From IMG/VR virus record IMGVR_UViG_2537561965_000009: 52,523 nt of DNA; one strand, 5' to 3'. A program made the translations under genes and the position numbers. The DNA comes from a virus. Taxonomy: Duplodnaviria; Heunggongvirae; Uroviricota; Caudoviricetes. The notes below the pieces were generated by a model that made no database searches, was not told the DNA's origin, and worked only from the letters and a program-made list of their open reading frames with translations. The first letter of the stretch is position 1, and each line of letters opens with the position of its first letter. This document shows, in pieces, positions 5,689-22,157 of this stretch.

Positions 5689-6366
5689 ATGTCCATCATT
5701 TTTAATGGACACTATCGTATGAAACACCGGACCTGGATCACTGAAGCTTTACGTCTTCACTTTGAAGAACATTTACCCCGGGTTGTGGCCGGGCGTCGCC
5801 TGGGTGTACCAAAATCAACAGTTTGTAGTATGTTCGTGCGCTTTCGGAGAGCTGGCCTTTCGTGGCCTTTGCCCGCAGGCATGTCGGAGCAGGAACTTGA
5901 TGCCTGCCTTTACGGACAATTTTCCACGGTACCAGTCGTACGTCCTGAAAGCACCGTTATATCCGAAGCCCCCGTGGTAAAAAAACGTCCCCGGCGGCCC
6001 AACTTCCCTTATGAGTTTAAAATCGCCTTAGTGGAGCAGTCACTGCAGCCCGGAGCCTGTGTGGCGCAGATCGCCCGGGAAAACGGAATCAACGATAACC
6101 TGCTCTTCAACTGGCGCCATCAATACCGGAAAGGTGGCCTGCTGCCTTCCGGAAAAAATATGCCGGCACTGCTTCCCGTGACGTTAACGCCGGAGCCGGA
6201 TAATAAAATCCCGGCCCCCGCACAGGAACCAGAGCAGATAAATACACCGTCCGACAGTCTGTGTTGTGAGCTGGTTCTGCCGGCCGGAACTCTCAGGCTT
6301 AAAGGTAAACTGACGCCGGCGTTATTACAGACACTTATCCGCGAAATAAAAGGGAGCAGCCACTGA
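5689..6366 (+). CDS. IS66-family accessory protein TnpA (HTH)
   Basis: 225-aa ORF with IS3/IS66 orfA-like HTH segment FKIALVEQSLQPGACVAQIARENGINDNLLFNWRHQYRKGG; stop overlaps start of tnpB. Confidence 0.7.
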   Translation: MSIIFNGHYRMKHRTWITEALRLHFEEHLPRVVAGRRLGVPKSTVCSMFVRFRRAGLSWPLPAGMSEQELDACLYGQFSTVPVVRPESTVISEAPVVKKRPRRPNFPYEFKIALVEQSLQPGACVAQIARENGINDNLLFNWRHQYRKGGLLPSGKNMPALLPVTLTPEPDNKIPAPAQEPEQINTPSDSLCCELVLPAGTLRLKGKLTPALLQTLIREIKGSSH

Positions 6367-6713
6367 TGATATCTCTCCCTGCAGGTTCGCGTATCTGGCT
6401 GGTTGCAGGTATCACCGATATGCGAAATGGCTTTAACGGCCTGGCATCAAAAGTTCAGAACGTCCTGAAGGATGACCCGTTCTCCGGACACCTGTTCATC
6501 TTCCGCGGACGCCGGGGTGACCAGATAAAAGTGTTGTGGGCTGACAGTGACGGACTGTGCCTCTTCACCAAACGCCTGGAGCGGGGCCGCTTCGTCTGGC
6601 CAGTCACCCGTGACGGCAAGGTGCACCTTACTCCGGCTCAGTTATCCATGCTTCTTGAAGGTATCAACTGGAAGCACCCGAAACGAACGGAACGCGCTGG
6701 AATCCGCATATAA
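6366..6713 (+). CDS. IS66-family TnpB
   Basis: 115-aa ORF MISLPAGSRIWLVAGITDMRNGFNGL... characteristic of IS66 orfB. Confidence 0.8.
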   Translation: MISLPAGSRIWLVAGITDMRNGFNGLASKVQNVLKDDPFSGHLFIFRGRRGDQIKVLWADSDGLCLFTKRLERGRFVWPVTRDGKVHLTPAQLSMLLEGINWKHPKRTERAGIRI

Positions 6714-6732
6714 CCCGTTGTAAAGTGAGGAT

Positions 6733-8304
6733 ATGGACACCTCACTTGCTCATGAGAACGCCCGCCTGCGGGCACTGTTGCAGACGCAACAGGACACCAT
6801 CCGCCAGATGGCCGAATATAACCGCCTGCTCTCACTGCGGGTGGCGGCTTATGCTTCCGAAATCAACCGGCTGAAGGCGCTGGTTGCGAAACTGCAACGT
6901 ATGCAGTTCGGTAAAAGCTCAGAAAAACTTCGTGCAAAAACCGAACGGCAGATACAGGAAGCACAGGAGCGAATCAGCGCACTTCAGGAAGAAATGGCGG
7001 AAACGCTGGGTGAGCAATATGACCCGGTACTGCCATCCGCCCTGCGCCAGTCTTCAGCCCGTAAACCGTTACCGGCCTCACTTCCCCGTGAAACCCGGGT
7101 TATCCGGCCGGAAGAGGAATGCTGTCCTGCCTGTGGTGGTGAACTCAGTTCTCTGGGATGTGATGTGTCAGAGCAACTGGAGCTTATCAGCAGCGCCTTT
7201 AAGGTTATCGAAACACAACGTCCGAAACAGGCCTGTTGCCGGTGCGACCATATCGTGCAGGCACCAGTACCTTCAAAACCCATTGCACGCAGTTATGCCG
7301 GAGCGGGGCTTCTGGCCCATGTTGTCACCGGGAAATATGCAGACCATCTGCCGTTATACCGCCAGTCAGAAATATACCGTCGTCAGGGAGTGGAGCTGAG
7401 CCGTGCCACACTGGGGCGCTGGACAGGTGCTGTTGCTGAACTGCTGGAGCCGCTGTATGACGTCCTGCGCCAGTATGTGCTGATGCCCGGTAAAGTCCAT
7501 GCTGATGATATCCCCGTCCCGGTCCAGGAGCCGGGCAGCGGTAAAACCCGGACAGCCCGGCTGTGGGTCTACGTCCGTGATGACCGTAACGCCGGTTCAC
7601 AGATGCCCCCGGCGGTCTGGTTCGCGTACAGTCCGGACCGGAAAGGTATCCATCCACAAAATCACCTGGCCGGTTACAGCGGTGTGCTTCAGGCCGATGC
7701 TTACGGTGGTTACCGGGCGTTATACGAATCCGGCAGAATAACGGAAGCCGCGTGTATGGCTCATGCCCGGAGAAAAATCCACGATGTGCATGCAAGAGCG
7801 CCCACCTACATCACCACGGAAGCCCTGCAGCGTATCGGTGAACTGTATGCCATCGAGGCAGAGGTCCGGGGCTGTTCAGCAGAACAGCGTCTGGCGGCAA
7901 GAAAAGCCAGAGCCGCGCCACTGATGCAGTCACTGTATGACTGGATACAGCAACAGATGAAAACACTGTCGCGTCACTCAGATACGGCAAAAGCGTTCGC
8001 ATACCTGCTGAAACAGTGGGATGCACTGAACGTGTACTGCAGTAATGGCTGGGTGGAAATCGACAACAACATCGCAGAGAACGCCTTACGGGGAGTGGCC
8101 GTAGGCCGGAAAAACTGGATGTTCGCGGGTTCCGACAGCGGTGGTGAACATGCGGCGGTGTTGTACTCGCTGATCGGCACATGCCGTCTGAACAATGTGG
8201 AGCCAGAAAAGTGGCTGCGTTACGTCATTGAACATATCCAGGACTGGCCGGCAAACCGGGTACGCGATCTGTTGCCCTGGAAAGTTGATCTGAGCTCTCA
8301 GTAA
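6733..8304 (+). CDS. IS66-family transposase TnpC
   Basis: 523-aa ORF with N-terminal coiled-coil and Cys-rich CPACG...CCRC region typical of IS66 transposases. Confidence 0.85.
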
Positions 8305-11325: not shown

Positions 11326-11682
11326 ATGGAAATAAAACCAGAGGATGAGTTAAGCAATATCGTTTTATTTCCGGTAAAAGAGGATGACCCTCGTAATCAG
11401 GTTAATTTTCTTTATGAGCCATCGGAAAGACCATATTGTCATCACGCCTCTGTCCGGGTTGACGAAAAAGAGCGTCAGGTCCGCTGTAAAATCTGCGGTG
11501 CAGTTGTGGAGCCATTTGACTGGATGCTCTCTGTGGCGAAAAGAGAAACCAGACTGGCAGATGATGTAAGGCTCTTGCGTCAAGAGGAGCGGGAAAGGCG
11601 AAAAAATATAGAAAAGCTAATTCAGATTGAGCGTAACGCGAAAGCGCGGATACGCAGGGCGACAAAATCCAGAACTGAATAA
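11326..11682 (+). CDS. hypothetical protein with CxHH...CKIC metal-binding-like motif
   Basis: 118 aa from ATG 11326 preceded by AAGGAGAGGAG; the ORF-track N-terminal extension is an alternative-start artefact. Confidence 0.5.
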   Translation: MEIKPEDELSNIVLFPVKEDDPRNQVNFLYEPSERPYCHHASVRVDEKERQVRCKICGAVVEPFDWMLSVAKRETRLADDVRLLRQEERERRKNIEKLIQIERNAKARIRRATKSRTE

Positions 11683-11775
11683 TTAAATTTAGCTCTGTTA
11701 AAAATTTAATCCTTAACCGGAGGGATTTCTGCACCCTCAGAACATCAGGAGGCCGCCCGAAAGGGCGGTAGTTAA

Positions 11776-11958
11776 ATGCGAAAGTTTAAAATAATTATTG
11801 AAACGGGAATAGCCGGTGGAGATTTCGAGGATGAATTCGAAGTGGATGATGATGCGACGCCTGATGAAATACATGACGAAGCAAAAGATATTTTCTTTAA
11901 CTACTGCAATTACTCATATCACGAAATAAAAGACGAAGAGGAAGAACAAAATGGCTGA
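11776..11958 (+). CDS. small acidic hypothetical protein
   Basis: 60-aa ORF with ATG start. Confidence 0.4.
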   Translation: MRKFKIIIETGIAGGDFEDEFEVDDDATPDEIHDEAKDIFFNYCNYSYHEIKDEEEEQNG

Positions 11959-12127
11959 TTTTGGTTCAACTAAATACAACGTCAGTTTTGAAGAATGGCA
12001 TGAACTGTTAATGGACTATGCAGAGTTACGTGGTGGCAGTGCTGCTGATGCTGAAGCATGGCGTGATGATTATGAAGCAGGAAAAACTCCGGTCGAAGCA
12101 TATTGTGATGAGTGGGGCGATGAATGA
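11951..12127 (+). CDS. small hypothetical protein
   Basis: 58-aa ORF MADFGSTKYNVSFEEWHELLMDYAELRGG... found manually; overlaps neighbours by a few nucleotides. Confidence 0.4.
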   Translation: MADFGSTKYNVSFEEWHELLMDYAELRGGSAADAEAWRDDYEAGKTPVEAYCDEWGDE

Positions 12128-12440
12128 GCGAGGTTAATTATCAGGAAGGGCATGAAACGGCGGGGCAAGCAAAAACAGTGGCATGGCGATATCGCTACGT
12201 GAAAAAAAAGGCGTTACGGACTTTCAGGGGAAGTAGTGGTCTGGTGACTGGAAATATGTACCGAAAAAAGAGGATTGTAACGACAGGCCGAACTATGAAA
12301 TTCAGGCCTTATTCACTGCCCCGCCAGTCCCGGTTACATCAGAAGAACTGGTTAAAGCTGTGCACTTTTATGAACAACTAAAACGCGAAAATCCACCAGC
12401 ATCCGGAAACCTGATTACAGATTCCCAGATAAGGCAATGA
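12124..12440 (+). pseudogene. probable disrupted gene (frame change at an A8 tract plus in-frame amber codon)
   Basis: ATG 12124 opens a protein-like N-terminus up to the A8 run at 12202-12209; the protein-like C-terminal segment WSGDWKYVPKKEDCNDRPNYEIQALFTAPPVPVTSEELVKAVHFYEQLKRENPPASGNLITDSQIRQ lies in another frame, has no start codon and follows a TAG at 12234-12236. Confidence 0.35.
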
Positions 12441-12610
12441 GCTACCTGGCGCAGAACGGGCTGATAAGTATGGGGAATGTTTTACGATGAATATTTAGAC
12501 TAAAGAGTTTGTAACGCTATGTAAGTGATTTTTTCTGGTTTAGATATTTATATATCCGGCCAAATTGAGGTGTGTTTAAATGTAATTGCACATTGATTGT
12601 AGGAGGAATA

Positions 12611-12790
12611 ATGAAAAACGCATTGCAGTTTTTGTTTGTTGCGTTCTGGTTGTTCGTATCATGTATGCCCATCATCTTCACAGCAAGGTATATGGAAAAA
12701 GTTGATGTTTTGATATTAATATTTGGATATATAAATGCCCTTTTTTTAGGGGTGTTCATGGCGGTCATGTGCATTGAATACTGGCGGTAA
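12611..12790 (+). CDS. small two-helix membrane protein (moron candidate)
   Basis: 59-aa hydrophobic product MKNALQFLFVAFWLFVSCMPIIF... with strong AGGAGG SD at ideal spacing; lies in an AT-rich islet. Confidence 0.45.
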   Translation: MKNALQFLFVAFWLFVSCMPIIFTARYMEKVDVLILIFGYINALFLGVFMAVMCIEYWR

Positions 12791-12935
12791 ATACAGCGAA
12801 CGCCATTGGTTTAGTTGGATATTTACTGTGCCGGACAAAAACGGTTTGCGGGGAAATCTTAGTTAAGTAGAATGACTGCGGGTGCTTGAGGCTATCTGTC
12901 TCAGGCATGAACACCAAAAGGCAGATAGAGAAAAG

Positions 12936-13000
12936 CCCCAGTTAACATTACGCGTCCTGCAAGACGCTTAACATTAATCTGAGGCCATATCTATGCTCTA
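12936..13000 (-). ncRNA. sok: candidate Sok antisense RNA
   Basis: Minus-strand promoter-like TTGCCT (rc of 13031-13036) and TAACCT (rc of 13007-13012) with 17-bp spacer, positioned like the sok promoter of hok/sok loci; extent is an estimate. Confidence 0.35.
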
Positions 13001-13205
13001 CACACGTAGGTTAGCCTCTTACGTGCCGAAAGGCAAGGAGAAGCAGGCTATGAAGCAGCAAAAGGCGATGCTAATCGCCCTGATCGTCATCTGTTTAACC
13101 GTCATAGTGACGGCACTGGTAACGAGGAAAGACCTCTGCGAGGTACGAATCCGAACCGGCCAGACGGAGGTCGCTGTCTTCACAGCTTACGAACCTGAGG
13201 AGTAA
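12993..13205 (+). CDS. mok: mok-like leader reading frame of the hok locus
   Basis: ORF starting upstream of hok and running to the same stop (here in frame with hok); the 5' leader matches the conserved hok mRNA pattern GCTTGAGGC...AGCCTCTTAC...AAGGAGAAG. Confidence 0.4.
   Translation: MLYTRRLASYVPKGKEKQAMKQQKAMLIALIVICLTVIVTALVTRKDLCEVRIRTGQTEVAVFTAYEPEE
13050..13205 (+). CDS. hok: Hok/Gef-family type I toxin
   Basis: 51-aa product MKQQKAMLIALIVICLTVIVTALVTRKDLCEVRIRTGQTEVAVFTAYEPEE has the Hok signature; AGGAG SD at 13036-13040. Confidence 0.85.
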   Translation: MKQQKAMLIALIVICLTVIVTALVTRKDLCEVRIRTGQTEVAVFTAYEPEE

Positions 13206-13273
13206 GAGACCAGGCGGGGGAGAATCCCTCGCCACCTCTGATGTGTCAGGCATCCTCAACGCACCCGCACTTA

Positions 13274-13299
13274 ACCCGCTTCGGCGGGTTTTGTTTTTT
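13274..13299 (+). terminator. rho-independent terminator of the hok transcript
   Basis: ACCCGC-TTCG-GCGGGT hairpin followed by a T-rich run; an upstream 3' element CCTCAACGCACCC is complementary to the 5' GGGTGCTTGAGG (fold-back pairing). Confidence 0.6.
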
Positions 13300-13371
13300 C
13301 CTGGCATTCTGGTTTACAATTCGCACGTCAGCCTGAACACCTGACACCTGCTGCGCCAGCAGAGAAAACAG

Positions 13372-15070: not shown

Positions 15071-15624
15071 TCGTAAATATGATATATCCGGAAATTACAG
15101 GCAAAAGCGGCGAGCATTTACGTCTAAAAACGCTGGAAGCCGTCTGGATCCAGGGGAAATTACGGATGTGGGGGCGTTGGTCGTACATAGGTGGTGGCAA
15201 ACCAGGAAATATGTTCAATCAGTTGCTGGCATCCAAAACACTTACAAAAACTGCGATCAATGAAGCTCTGCGCAGAATAAAAAAATCAGGGATTGATAAA
15301 ACTGAGCTGGAAGCGTTTTTGCGTGAGATGATCAACAGCAAGCAAAAGAGCGGGCTGGCTTATTGTACTGATGCCGAGGCGTTATGTATCGATCGGGTAA
15401 TTAGTAAAGTGTTGGCAGAGCATCCGGGATTGATTTGTATCCTCCGACAAAGATATGAAGGGCTGGGAATGAGCAAGCTGAAAATGGCAGAACAGTTAAA
15501 AAAGAATCACCCTGACTGGAGCCTGAAAACTTGTAGAAATCGCATTGATGTTTGGTTGGCGATGGCTGAAACCATGCTTTTCCTTCCAATGTGCGTGGCA
15601 CTTCGGTGCTTTTCTGATAACTGA
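15067..15624 (+). CDS. late-gene antiterminator Q-like protein
   Basis: 185-aa ORF (GTG 15067 or ATG 15079) directly after rusA and before the late/lysis region; contains an RMWGRWS motif reminiscent of Q-type antiterminators; the call is mainly positional. Confidence 0.5.
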   Translation: MIVNMIYPEITGKSGEHLRLKTLEAVWIQGKLRMWGRWSYIGGGKPGNMFNQLLASKTLTKTAINEALRRIKKSGIDKTELEAFLREMINSKQKSGLAYCTDAEALCIDRVISKVLAEHPGLICILRQRYEGLGMSKLKMAEQLKKNHPDWSLKTCRNRIDVWLAMAETMLFLPMCVALRCFSDN

Positions 15625-15713
15625 TGATAGAAGTGCATCAGCTATCAATCTTGTTGACGTTCATCAAGGTCTGGACAATACTTACGTTAAGTTCCAACAT
15701 ATGGAAGATAAGA

Positions 15714-16904
15714 ATGATATTTACACGATTGAGATTTATCAATTTGTACGCTTTTGAGGATGCAGAGCTTAACCTGTCCTATCCAAGGAAACCTGTAAAC
15801 ATGCCTCTTGATGGGGAGTTTTTGGCTGGACGGCCTAAATTTTACTATAAAAAAGTCTGTATCATAACGGGGGGAAATGCTTCAGGCAAGACGTCACTAG
15901 GGCGAATTCTTTGTGGAATTCAGGTGTTTCTAAGAACCAAAGAGTTGCGGAGTAATCTGCGAGTGAATAATAAAAATAATGATGCTTCGTTTGAAGTAGA
16001 CTTTGCTACGGAGGAACATTTTCATCATCGTTTGTATGTACGCTTTGCTACCAGTGAAGGCGGAGCGCACATAATCAAAGAAATTAAATATGGTTTTGTT
16101 CAAATAGCATTAAATGATTCTTGCTATAAAACCACAGAAAAACTGAATCAACTCTTTTCTGGAAGGGCCCCAGGAGATACAGAATATTTTTTTCAGGAAC
16201 TAGCTACTGATAGCGAACCAGTTGTATTGGAGTTTTTCAAGCAACTTAAGTTTTTTGGTGGATGGTACTATTTGTTGTCTGAAACTAAAGAAAGTACCAC
16301 TGCAATTTCAGGAATGAATAAAAATATTCTTGAAAGGATAATTCGCACTTTCGATTCAAGTATTATAGGAGTTACCGAGATGCTGGAGTCTGAAAGTGAC
16401 GGGGATGAAAATAAATCATCTGCGGTTTATCTGATTAAATTTAAAAACTCTGATTCTCTTGTCGTTACCAGTAAAGGTGAAATAATTAACTCAGACCGTC
16501 TTTCTCGAGGAACATACGAGGCAGTGACGGTAGCGCATTTTATAAGCGCTATTATCTCTGATTGTGAAAGACTAGGTAAGCAATCTCTAATACCATCAAT
16601 GACTTATTTTCTTGACGAGAAATTGGCTTATACACATTCAGAGTTAGAGCGTATGATTGTGGCGCTGATTATATCTAATTTGAAAGAAAATACTCAGTTT
16701 TTCTATACAACGCATAACATGGATATTTTTGAGTTGGATCTGCCTGTTCACTCGTTCATTTTTATTAAAAAAACGAAAGACTATTCGGAGTTTGTTGAAG
16801 CAAATTCAGTTGTTAAAAAAAATGACCGTAGCATGCGAAACGCTGTTGAGAGAGATGTCTTTGGTGTCTTACCTGACACATCATTAGTATCGGAGCTACT
16901 CTGA
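15714..16904 (+). CDS. ABC-type (AAA_21/SMC-like) ATPase, first gene of a candidate two-gene defence module
   Basis: 396 aa from ATG 15714; N-terminus MIFTRLRFINLYAFEDAELNL; Walker A ITGGNASGKTS; signature-like LSRGTYEAV; Walker B YFLDE; H-loop-like TTHN; strongly AT-rich codon usage unlike flanking phage genes; stop overlaps next start (TGATG). Confidence 0.7.
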   Translation: MIFTRLRFINLYAFEDAELNLSYPRKPVNMPLDGEFLAGRPKFYYKKVCIITGGNASGKTSLGRILCGIQVFLRTKELRSNLRVNNKNNDASFEVDFATEEHFHHRLYVRFATSEGGAHIIKEIKYGFVQIALNDSCYKTTEKLNQLFSGRAPGDTEYFFQELATDSEPVVLEFFKQLKFFGGWYYLLSETKESTTAISGMNKNILERIIRTFDSSIIGVTEMLESESDGDENKSSAVYLIKFKNSDSLVVTSKGEIINSDRLSRGTYEAVTVAHFISAIISDCERLGKQSLIPSMTYFLDEKLAYTHSELERMIVALIISNLKENTQFFYTTHNMDIFELDLPVHSFIFIKKTKDYSEFVEANSVVKKNDRSMRNAVERDVFGVLPDTSLVSELL

Positions 16905-17437
16905 TGGCGGGGTTGTCTAAAATAAGAATAATTTTTGTCGAAGGTGAAACAGAAAACTCTCTTTTTCAGAAGATGAAACAACAGAGAGTTATTGATGCCA
17001 AATCAATTGTAAAAAGAAACTTTTGGCAAGAGAGCATAAGAAATTATGCGATTACTATTCCGAAGGGAAGTGATATACTAATTGTCTTTGATAGTGATGA
17101 AGTGGAGCAATCTGCAAGATTCATTGAAAATGTAAAGTTCCTTAAAAACAGAGGGCATAAAGTTTATCTTTTGCAGCAGAAAAGAAATTTTGAGGAGGAG
17201 TTGGCCTGGTGTTGCGGAATTCCTGTAAAAAAACTAATTGCTGGGTTCTGTGCAAAAAAAACATCGGGTATAAATGATTTCAAGAGAGATTTTATTGCTT
17301 GTAACAATCAACTTTCAAAGTTACTGAAAATGGGCATGCAGGAAACTAAGTGGTTTACAAGAGATTTACATACTGTATTGGAGCCTGTTGCAAGTTTTAA
17401 GTCATCTTTTTCTAAACATTTCAGGTTAACAAGATGA
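16904..17437 (+). CDS. small TOPRIM-like protein (RloB/OLD/DUF4435-like), second gene of the candidate module
   Basis: 177-aa ORF; N-terminal IRIIFVEGETE and downstream ILIVFDSDEV give the Glu ... DxD arrangement of TOPRIM-type nuclease domains; translationally coupled to the ATPase gene. Confidence 0.6.
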   Translation: MAGLSKIRIIFVEGETENSLFQKMKQQRVIDAKSIVKRNFWQESIRNYAITIPKGSDILIVFDSDEVEQSARFIENVKFLKNRGHKVYLLQQKRNFEEELAWCCGIPVKKLIAGFCAKKTSGINDFKRDFIACNNQLSKLLKMGMQETKWFTRDLHTVLEPVASFKSSFSKHFRLTR

Positions 17438-18067: not shown

Positions 18068-19117
18068 ATGGCTAATACTGTAAAAATATCCAGTTGTGAG
18101 TTAATCAACGCTGATTGCCTGGAATTTATCCAGACCTTACCGGAAAACTCTGTCGATCTTATAGTCACAGACCCGCCATACTTTAAAGTGAAACCCGAGG
18201 GCTGGGATAACCAGTGGAAGGGCGACGATGATTACCTGAAGTGGCTGGACCAGTGTCTGGCGCAGTTCTGGCGGGTGCTGAAACCTGTCGGAAGTCTTTA
18301 CCTGTTCTGTGGTCATCGCCTGGCATCTGATATCGAAATCATGATGCGTGAACGCTTCAGTGTGCTGAACCATATTATCTGGGCGAAGCCGTCCGGACGC
18401 TGGAACGGATGCAACAAGGAAAGCCTGCGGGCGTATTTCCCCGCCACAGAGCGCATTCTGTTCGCGGAACATTATCAGGGGCCGTATCGTCCGAAAGATG
18501 CCGGGTATGCGGCGAAGGGCAGTGCACTGAAACAGCATGTGATGGCCCCGCTGATTTCTTACTTTCGTGATGCGCGCGCGGCCCTGGGGATAACGGCAAA
18601 ACAGATTGCAGATGCCACAGGAAAGAAAAACATGGTGTCGCACTGGTTCAGTGCCAGTCAGTGGCAGCTACCGAACGAAAGCGATTATCTGAAATTACAG
18701 TCGCTGTTTGCCCGGGTGGCAGAAGAGAAACATCAGCGCGGTGAACTGGAAAAGCCCCACCACCAGCTGGTGGATACGTATACGTCACTGAACCGGCAGT
18801 ATGTGGAGCTGCAGAGTGAATATAAGCATCTGCGGCGGTATTTTGGTGTGACGGCGCAGGTGCCGTACACGGATGTGTGGACACATAAACCGGTGCAGTT
18901 CTATCCCGGGAAACATCCGTGCGAAAAACCGGCAGAAATGCTGCAGCAGATAATCAGCGCAAGCAGTCGTCCGGGAGACCTGGTTGCAGATTTTTTTATG
19001 GGCTCAGGTTCAACGGTAAAAGCTGCACTGGCGCTCGGGCGTCGTGCGATTGGCGTTGAACTGGAGACCGGACGTTTTGAGCAGACAGTCAGGGAAGTTC
19101 AGGATTTAATCGTTTGA
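18068..19117 (+). CDS. DNA methyltransferase (N6-adenine/N4-cytosine, beta class), apparently orphan
   Basis: 349-aa ORF with motif IV DPPY near the N-terminus and motif I FFMGSGST near the C-terminus; no adjacent restriction endonuclease gene seen. Confidence 0.8.
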   Translation: MANTVKISSCELINADCLEFIQTLPENSVDLIVTDPPYFKVKPEGWDNQWKGDDDYLKWLDQCLAQFWRVLKPVGSLYLFCGHRLASDIEIMMRERFSVLNHIIWAKPSGRWNGCNKESLRAYFPATERILFAEHYQGPYRPKDAGYAAKGSALKQHVMAPLISYFRDARAALGITAKQIADATGKKNMVSHWFSASQWQLPNESDYLKLQSLFARVAEEKHQRGELEKPHHQLVDTYTSLNRQYVELQSEYKHLRRYFGVTAQVPYTDVWTHKPVQFYPGKHPCEKPAEMLQQIISASSRPGDLVADFFMGSGSTVKAALALGRRAIGVELETGRFEQTVREVQDLIV

Positions 19118-19166: not shown

Positions 19167-19242
19167 GGCCCTTTAGCTCAGTGGTGAGAGCGAGCGACTC
19201 ATAATCGCCAGGTCGCTGGTTCAAATCCAGCAAGGGCCACCA
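19167..19242 (+). tRNA. ileZ: tRNA with CAU anticodon, ileX-like (tRNA-Ile2)
   Basis: 76-nt cloverleaf GGCCCTT...AAGGGCCACCA with anticodon loop CUCAUAA; closely resembles E. coli ileX as recalled; same position as ileZ in Stx-type phages. Confidence 0.8.
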
Positions 19243-19249
19243 TCACATA

Positions 19250-19326
19250 CCGCCATTAGCTCATCAGGAAAGAGCGCCAGCCTTCGAAGCTGGTTGCGCG
19301 GGGTTCAAGTCCCCGATGGCGGTCCA
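19250..19326 (+). tRNA. argN: tRNA-Arg (anticodon UCG)
   Basis: 77-nt cloverleaf with acceptor CCGCCAT/ATGGCGG, anticodon loop CUUCGAA, T-arm CGGGGTTCAAGTCCCCG and encoded CCA. Confidence 0.75.
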
Positions 19327-19339
19327 TTATCTGCATCAT

Positions 19340-19416
19340 GCGTTGTTAGCTCAGCCGGACAGAGCAATTGCCTTCTAAGCAATCGGTCACTGGTTCGAAT
19401 CCAGTACAACGCGCCA
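19340..19416 (+). tRNA. argO: tRNA-Arg (anticodon UCU)
   Basis: 77-nt cloverleaf GCGTTGT...ACAACGCGCCA with anticodon loop CUUCUAA. Confidence 0.8.
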
Positions 19417-20043: not shown

Positions 20044-20303
20044 TTAGTTTCCTTGTTTATGCCTTGCTGGTGATGTTCTGAAAAGTATAAATGATATTTT
20101 TGATTGTAAACCATAGAGCAGAATTATTTTTCTGATGTTGTTTATTGTTTATTTAAATGCAGGGTGGTTTATATCTCGTCTTGTAGTTTATCCATGCATA
20201 TCTGCTTGATGATGAGGTTTTTATTTAAGGTATGGTTTTGTGTTTTTTCTGTATTACATGTCAGGTATTTTAAAGAATCATTTTTCAGATGGTGGAAAGA
20301 ACC

Positions 20304-22157
20304 ATGGCATTTAAACACTATGATGTTGTCAGGGCGGCGTCGCCGTCAGATCTTGCGGAAAAGCTGACACATAAACTGAAAGAGGGCTGGCAGCCGTTTG
20401 GTAGTCCGGTGGCCATAACCCCTTATACCCTGATGCAGGCGATTGCAGCAGAAGGTGATGTGGTCGTCAGTGGTGCAACTGAGCCGGAGTGGTACTACGT
20501 CATCGTACTGGCCGGGCAATCCAATGCCATGGCTTACGGTGAAGGGCTTCCGCTTCCGGATTCTTACGATGCGCCCCACCCACGCATTAAGCAACTGGCC
20601 CGTCGCAACACAGTGACTCCCGGTGGTAAAGCATGCGCATTTAACGACATCATTCCGGCAGACCACTGCCTGCATGATGTTCAGGATATGAGCGCACTGA
20701 ATCATCCGAAGGCAGACCTGAGCAAAGGGCAGTACGGCTGTGTCGGCCAGGGCTTACATATTGCCAAAAAACTGCTTCCGTATATCCCGAATAACGCGGG
20801 GATCCTGCTGGTACCATGCTGTCGTGGTGGTTCGGCATTCACCCAGGGCGCGGAGGGGACATTCAGTGCGGACACGGGGGCCAGCCAGGATTCGGCACGC
20901 TGGGGTGTGGGTAAACCGTTATATCAGGACCTGATCGCACGCACCAAAGCGGCATTACAGAAGAACCCGAAAAATGTGTTGCTGGCGGTGTGCTGGATGC
21001 AGGGCGAATTTGACATGAGCGCTGCCACCTACGCACAGCAACCGGACCTGTTCACGGCCATGCTGAAGCAGTTCCGTACTGACCTTTCCGGATTTAACGC
21101 GCAGTGCCATGGCGGCAGTGCTGCAGTTGTACCGTGGATTTGTGGCGACACGACGTATTACTGGAAAAACACATACGGCACACAGTATGACTCCGTCTAC
21201 GGCGCATACAAAAACAGGGAGAGCGACAACGTTTTCTTTGTGCCGTTCATGACCGACGGTAACGGCAACAACACGCCCACCAACTTACCGGCAGAAGACC
21301 CGGATATTGCTGATGCAGGTTATTACGGCGCGCAATCCCGTAGTAATGGTAATTGGGTATCGTCAAACCGCCCGACACATTTCAGTTCATGGGCGCGCAG
21401 GAGCATTATTCCGGATCGTATGGCAACCGCTATTCTGAACGCAGCCGGGCGCACCTCAGCCTTCATCAGTGGTAAGGCACCGGAAATCAAACCCTCGCCC
21501 GGCGTCGACACGCCATCGGGGCCGTCTGAAGATGCATCCGTACGCACAATCTCCCTGTTGCCGACAGCCGGAGAGGCTGCTGCGCAGGGCTGGACCATTA
21601 AGGACGGCGGAATTCAGTTGTCGGGTGGTGTATTTAAGATCACCAAGCAGAGCAATAAAACTTGGTCCCTGATGCATCCGGTGGATGACGCAGTCTCCCT
21701 GCTGACACGGGGTGGCAGACTGAGCTGTAAGTTTCGACTGTCAGGCGCACTGACCAACAACCAGTTCGGTCTGGGAATTTATCTGTATACCGATGTAGCG
21801 TTACCTGACGTCGTGGCGATGACCGGGACTGGTAACCCGTTCCTGATGTCGTTCTTCACCCAGACCACAGACGGCAAACTGAATCTGATGCATCACAGGA
21901 AAGCAGGAAACACAAAGTTGGGCGAGTTCGGGAATTACAGTAACGACTGGCAGACGCTGGAGCTGGTGTTCACCGCCGGCAGTGCCACGGTTACTCCGAA
22001 ACTGAATGGAGTGGCTGGCCCGGCATTCCAGGTCATAAAAGACAGTCTGACACTGGGGCTGAATGCGCTGACGCTGACGGATATTACCAAAAATGCAGCG
22101 TATGGCGTTGAGATAGAAAGTCTGGTGCTGGAGATAAATGCACCAGCATCATCATAA
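20304..22157 (+). CDS. prophage sialate O-acetylesterase (NanS-p-like; DUF1737 N-terminus plus SGNH/SASA esterase domain)
   Basis: 617 aa from ATG 20304 (alternative ATG 20289); N-terminal MAFKHYDVVRAASPSDLAEKL...; esterase motif VLAGQSNAMAYGEG; C-terminal beta-rich probable carbohydrate-binding region; same position as nanS-p downstream of stx in Stx phages. Confidence 0.75.
   Translation: MAFKHYDVVRAASPSDLAEKLTHKLKEGWQPFGSPVAITPYTLMQAIAAEGDVVVSGATEPEWYYVIVLAGQSNAMAYGEGLPLPDSYDAPHPRIKQLARRNTVTPGGKACAFNDIIPADHCLHDVQDMSALNHPKADLSKGQYGCVGQGLHIAKKLLPYIPNNAGILLVPCCRGGSAFTQGAEGTFSADTGASQDSARWGVGKPLYQDLIARTKAALQKNPKNVLLAVCWMQGEFDMSAATYAQQPDLFTAMLKQFRTDLSGFNAQCHGGSAAVVPWICGDTTYYWKNTYGTQYDSVYGAYKNRESDNVFFVPFMTDGNGNNTPTNLPAEDPDIADAGYYGAQSRSNGNWVSSNRPTHFSSWARRSIIPDRMATAILNAAGRTSAFISGKAPEIKPSPGVDTPSGPSEDASVRTISLLPTAGEAAAQGWTIKDGGIQLSGGVFKITKQSNKTWSLMHPVDDAVSLLTRGGRLSCKFRLSGALTNNQFGLGIYLYTDVALPDVVAMTGTGNPFLMSFFTQTTDGKLNLMHHRKAGNTKLGEFGNYSNDWQTLELVFTAGSATVTPKLNGVAGPAFQVIKDSLTLGLNALTLTDITKNAAYGVEIESLVLEINAPASS

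Follow-up and report, generated by a model that had tools for sequence, protein, structure and literature searches.

Positions 12124-12490 of the window, the whole 52,523-nucleotide stretch of phage DNA that was analysed, very probably represent what is left of a small, now dead accessory gene of the PHROG 660 type. Sequence comparisons identified three lesions in this copy: an expanded A tract, an in-frame amber codon and a 56-bp deletion. The feature is already known: hundreds of public E. coli genomes carry it with a pseudogene flag. Its importance is small; it offers a tidy case of what appears to be stepwise decay in a presumably dispensable prophage accessory gene.

Gene layout and position of the lesions

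The gene belongs to the early-right operon of a lambdoid prophage of E. coli, where it lies after the replication genes and before hok/sok. The gene order is replisome organiser, DUF977, hypothetical, DUF7167, 58-aa hypothetical, this pseudogene, sok/hokD, DUF968, RusA and antiterminator. A scan of 11600-13300 for promoters and terminators returned nothing above chance expectation near the gene. Start/stop overlaps of the ATGA type are commonplace in phage operons, and reading of the sequence indicated that ATG 12124 shares such an ATGA with the stop codon of the upstream 58-aa gene. The original prediction described this ATG, an A8 run at 12202-12209, a TAG codon at 12234-12236 and a second frame devoid of a start next to it; the sequence and the list of open reading frames agreed with all four.

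The frame of ATG 12124 stays open to 12381 and defines an 85-aa ORF, the last 58 residues of which are out of frame, with a tail (ALRTFRGSSGLVTGNMYRKK...) unlike protein. One base back, the frame reads ...KKGVTDFQGK, the TAG codon, then WSGDWKYVPKKEDCNDRPNYEIQALF...ITDSQIRQ. This second open frame starts with the TGG codon at 12237, runs to 12437, is closed by TGA (12438-12440) and has GTG 12360 as its sole in-frame start. The two frames are offset by -1/+2, and an A9 tract would join both arithmetically. The features found along the gene were as follows.

12124..12201, + strand: N-terminal remnant MSEVNYQEGHETAGQAKTVAWRYRYV, read in frame with ATG 12124; alignable with intact homologues at their N-termini
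12202..12209, + strand: A8 homopolymer; ancestral state A6 (GTG AAA AAA GGC = V-K-K-G), the +2 shifting the frame
12210..12233, + strand: GVTDFQGK in the native frame downstream of the tract, no longer in phase with the ATG (translations and protein alignment)
12234..12236, + strand: premature amber codon TAG, CAG (Gln) in homologue P0004 (DNA and protein alignments)
12237..12403, + strand: middle remnant WSGDWKYVPKKEDCNDRPNYEIQALFTAPPVPVTSEELVKAVHFYEQLKRENPPAS in the native frame (PHROG profile match, translations and protein alignment)
12404..12406, + strand: junction of the 56-bp deletion at a CGG microhomology, causing the second frame shift (alignments against longer alleles of the same lineage)
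12407..12490, + strand: native C-terminal remnant KPDYRFPDKAMSYLAQNGLISMGNVLR in a third frame, with stop TGA 12488-12490 (three-frame translations)

Intact homologues and ancestral states

The repaired translation was colinear with PHROG 660 in an HMM search (E = 6e-28, profile positions 34-124), and two intact relatives matched the same profile with E = 6e-43 and 4e-48. The middle remnant (12237..12403) corresponds to the best-conserved part of the family. PHROG 660 is a phage protein family of unknown function without a Pfam family; a Pfam search with the repaired protein, two intact homologues and two neighbouring ORFs matched no family. Because the joined halves were colinear with PHROG 660 and aligned end to end with intact homologues, both are judged to be genuine coding remnants and not chance ORFs.

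Intact homologues were found as single ORFs of 119-171 aa in E. coli phages and prophages. These include gp20 of phage pPE4 (119 aa), the mEp460 protein (155 aa), P0004 (locus L015; 141 aa) and P0002, P0006 and P0010 (171 aa each), and a large protein collection contained many E. coli proteins of 119, 132, 141 and 171 aa. The comparison with homologues could have revealed two independent small genes; it returned one ORF instead. Frameshifts and removal of a stop were needed to align the window copy with these uninterrupted homologues. Members of PHROG 660 are encoded by a single uninterrupted ORF and the window copy is spread over three frames with an internal TAG; it is therefore classed as a pseudogene of this family and not as a functional member. 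In agreement with the decaying gene put forward by the original prediction, PGAP labelled the same stretch 'frameshifted; internal stop'.

DNA alignments provided the likely ancestral state of each lesion. At the tract, intact genes read GTG AAA AAA GGC (V-K-K-G), and pPE4, mEp460 and P0004 carry A6 or AGAAAA. This comparison indicates that the tract lesion is a +2 expansion from A6 and not the loss of one A. Adding one A, as the original prediction proposed, does join the frames arithmetically, but the repair that follows the history of the tract removes two (A8 to A6). At the amber site, the closest intact homologue with readable DNA (P0004) has CAG (Gln); CCG, CTG and ATG were found in more distant homologues. 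The amber codon would most simply be accounted for by one C-to-T transition, CAG to TAG, with P0004/L015 as the sole source for the CAG ancestor.

A further candidate for Gln at this site, the ENA protein P0023, was rejected, as the contig it derives from has TAG and gives a different translation. The P0023 locus (L013 874-1233, ENA contig ERZ773225 NODE_38484) has an in-frame TAG where the protein has Gln, and translation with table 11 disagrees with the deposited sequence. It is apparently a gene-calling artefact in which a TAG=Gln code was used on an E. coli prophage pseudogene. Annotators should be aware that some metagenome gene callers emit a 'protein' in which the amber codon is read as Gln.

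Compared with longer alleles from its own lineage (ML35, CFSAN029787 and PhiR42_1), the window is short of 56 bp at the CGG microhomology; alignments showed that L007, L009 and PhiR42_1 retain the additional 56-57 bp. Owing to this deletion, the native C-terminus lies in the third frame and ends at 12490. The corresponding peptide (KPDYRFPDKAMSYLAQNGLISMGNVLR) aligned with the C-terminal ends of the intact homologues of 141 and 171 aa, and PGAP runs the longer pseudogene alleles out to the stop at 12490. The original prediction had extended the C-terminal coding segment to ITDSQIRQ. Its claim of remnant coding sequence held, but the ITDSQIRQ ending is out of frame as a result of the deletion: the 'SGNLITDSQIRQ' ending ('NLITDSQIRQ*', stop 12438-12440) is a wrong-frame read and not native, and the remnant continues past 12440 to 12490. 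One Logan contig carries an intact ORF of 104 aa (P0028) whose 3' end has the same deletion. Because this intact protein has the same ending, the 56-bp deletion may be tolerated by itself and may not have been inactivating.

Allelic series, distribution and neighbourhood

Every sampled allele of the lineage has the TAG codon, and the length of the tract differs between them. The alleles and their exact records in complete E. coli genomes were as follows.

A6+TAG: ML35, ATCC 8739 and phage PhiR42_1; 424 exact records
A7+TAG: CFSAN029787 and EcPNK006; 62 exact records
A8+TAG: the window and CREC-532; 342 exact records
A6 with one G deleted, +TAG: ET846
A6+CAG (synthetic query): no full-length example; 0 exact records

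The A6+CAG form of the window lineage had 0 full-length matches in 5426 complete E. coli genomes, the best matches being TAG alleles with one mismatch. Single alleles displayed extra independent lesions: another TAG, a TGA codon immediately following the first TAG, or a loss of 4 nt. Sister alleles thus differ by A6, A7 or A8, the deleted G, the second TAG, the TGA, the 4-nt deletion and the 56-bp deletion, as expected under relaxed constraint. The pattern suggests that the nonsense mutation is old and that the sequence then drifted without constraint, the homopolymer being a hot spot for mutation.

We therefore hypothesize that TAG, which most simply arose from CAG, is the oldest lesion, since all A-tract variants have it. 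Slipped-strand expansion would then have taken the tract from A6 via A7 to A8 without constraint, and the microhomology deletion of 56 bp would have shifted the C-terminal frame; both the homopolymer drift and the deletion are placed after the nonsense mutation. The present predicted product is an 85-aa peptide made of 27 native residues followed by out-of-frame sequence, and no functional protein is predicted. The remnant would persist solely by means of a mosaic module moving among prophages.

The 541-bp region was matched in 2104 of the 5426 complete E. coli genomes, with 626 records at >=99% identity, and at 99.8% identity in two phage records. The exact 93-mer covering A8 and TAG (12170-12262) occurred in 342 complete E. 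coli genomes, one of which is CFT073, indicating that these lesions are real. PGAP annotated the same stretch in FDAARGOS_536, CFT073 and CREC-532 as a pseudogene, 'hypothetical protein; frameshifted; internal stop'. The remnant is found beside mtfA/tRNA-Ser in the FDAARGOS_536 prophage and between potC and potB in CFT073. Prophages at different integration sites carry it, and it therefore moves with the mosaic module. About one fifth of complete E. coli genomes have a TAG-lineage allele, which makes the remnant a widespread passenger of this module. In all, the TAG lineage numbers roughly 1,150 alleles.

Several neighbouring features were recorded. Between the pseudogene and sok/hokD, a 59-aa hydrophobic ORF (MKNALQFLFVAFWLFVSCMPIIF...; 12611-12790, +) is preceded by a strong AGGAGG ribosome-binding site (12602-12607). 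It had no match in Pfam, PHROG or PADLOC; PGAP did not annotate it in CFT073 or FDAARGOS_536, but the gene calls of Logan contig L014 include it. This ORF may encode an overlooked small membrane protein. The hok/sok type I toxin-antitoxin locus spans 12880-13205 (+), with sok RNA (Rfam RF01794, 117 bits) at 12880-13055 and the end of the HokD ORF at 13205. Just past the DUF1133/Q-like antiterminator gene, positions 15624-17437 (+) hold a 426-aa AAA_15 ATPase (PADLOC AbiLi-like, E = 1e-25, with weaker AriA and mad3 matches) directly followed on its 3' side by a 177-aa ORF without matches. The pair, missing from the CFT073 and FDAARGOS_536 versions of the region, may be a putative two-gene AbiL-like anti-phage cargo.

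Elsewhere, the early-left prophage region contains an IS66-family element (5689-8304, +) with three ORFs (HTH_Tnp_1, TnpB_IS66 and DDE_Tnp_IS66). An N6_N4 DNA methylase of 349 aa is encoded at 18068-19117 (+). The 622-aa protein encoded at 20289-22157 (+) combines DUF1737, SASA esterase and DUF6645 domains, the same set as in prophage sialate O-acetylesterase. ARAGORN identified a tRNA cluster at 19167-19416 (+) made of Met(cat), Arg(tcg) and Arg(tct). Since PGAP names the first tRNA of the corresponding CFT073 cluster tRNA-Ile, the tRNA with the CAT anticodon is probably a lysidine-modified tRNA-Ile2.

Alternative readings and comparison with known systems

Homopolymers are prone to error in some sequencing chemistries, which is what could favour the view, raised by the original prediction, that A8 is a sequencing or assembly error and the true gene is intact. 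The probability of such an error is close to nil: identical A8+TAG 93-mers come from 342 complete E. coli genomes sequenced in many laboratories, the two phage records agree with the window at 99.8% identity over the 541-bp region, and correcting the tract leaves the TAG and the 56-bp deletion in place. We also consider it most improbable that the stretch consists of two small genes, each independent of the other, or encodes an N-terminal micropeptide (37 or 85 aa) with a function. The ORF of 85 aa that starts at ATG 12124 is open, and its translation is coupled to that of the upstream gene, but the C-terminal segment has no start codon until GTG 12360, both parts form one ORF in homologues, and the 58 residues after the tract are out of frame and vary with tract length among alleles. 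Conservation of this 58-aa tail across diverged lineages was not seen. Similarly, the A6, A7 and A8 polymorphism among close relatives could point to a phase-variable (contingency) locus with tract length as an on/off switch. There is very little chance that this is the case, as the downstream TAG is found in all tract variants of the lineage, so that no tract length corresponds to an ON state, and the A6 of intact genes is ordinary Lys-Lys coding sequence. No interconverting A6+CAG and A8+CAG alleles were found among the 5426 genomes.

The original prediction had itself ranked recoding as the less likely option. It would involve -1 ribosomal frameshifting or transcriptional slippage on A_AAA_AAG (12204-12210), followed by amber readthrough, to yield a full-length protein; a junction read as sense would span ...YVKKKGVTDFQGK-X-WSGDWKY..., from the tract to past the amber codon. 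The A8 allele does place a dnaX-type A AAA AAG in the zero frame of ATG 12124, and a -1 slip re-enters the native frame. However, the -1 frame hits TAG after 9 codons, and the heptamer is absent both from intact homologues (A6, in-frame Lys-Lys) and from the A6 and A7 sister alleles; we conclude that its placement in the A8 allele came about by accident. The slippery heptamer was thus found without stimulators, conservation or a meaningful trans-frame product: the 70 nt downstream fold at -10.8 kcal/mol, no better than shuffled sequences (z = 0.35), and the 22 nt upstream (GGCATGGCGATATCGCTACGTG) have no Shine-Dalgarno-like element. Both events together would still leave the C-terminus out of frame through the 56-bp deletion. 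As for readthrough, the only tRNAs of the window are Met(cat), Arg(tcg) and Arg(tct), with no suppressor (anticodon CUA) within the window, and the long conserved structural and replication ORFs are intact under table 11 without internal TAG; the window thus has neither a suppressor tRNA nor a spread of in-frame TAGs. Stop usage in 34 long window ORFs (17 TGA, 17 TAA, 0 TAG) was uninformative on TAG reassignment, and because of this the argument against reassignment was drawn from the absent internal TAGs. The 0/34 TAG stops are mildly unusual, yet within chance, as TAG stops are rare in E. coli. Taken as a whole, recoding is very unlikely to operate here.

One allele bears on whether any product is made. 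The NCBI protein P0039 (105 aa; L012 1501-1818, GCA_054890285.1, JBTZPN010000014.1) corresponds to the window allele with one T added just after the TAG region (GGTTCTGG). Its ORF, known from one contig, reads the out-of-frame ALRTFRGSSG segment and thereby skips the TAG. The additional T may be a genuine compensatory frameshift or come from an error in the assembly. P0039 could hint at selection for ORF recovery, which counts against the decay reading. Expression of the A8 allele, through a -1 slip giving a 37-aa peptide that keeps WRYRYVKK or through a chimeric 105-aa ORF of the P0039 type, is doubtful and can be given only a slim chance. If it were true, the 'pseudogene' would give rise to new small proteins instead of being inert DNA.

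Collectively, the comparisons support a decayed copy of a PHROG 660 gene. Homopolymer contingency loci undergo phase variation by slipped-strand events; the window tract is likewise polymorphic in length, most likely through the same mutational mechanism, but the window lineage has no ON state because TAG is fixed. A dnaX-type -1 site is made of A AAA AAG, an upstream Shine-Dalgarno-like element and a downstream hairpin. The A8 allele has the same heptamer in its zero frame, but the window site differs from a dnaX-type site in having no stimulators and no conservation, and in a -1 frame that ends after 9 codons. With PHROG 660, the repaired translation and the intact relatives share the core AWRYRYVKK...W.GDWKYVP.KEDCNDRP.YEIQALF, but the window copy is broken at three places and cannot encode a family member. 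The PGAP pseudogenes EGX93_RS25820 (FDAARGOS_536) and HGG68_RS25130 (CFT073) are identical to the window feature in sequence and in coordinates relative to their neighbours. They differ in their annotated end at 12440, whereas the native C-terminal remnant reaches 12490; the remnant should be annotated as covering three frames and ending at this position.
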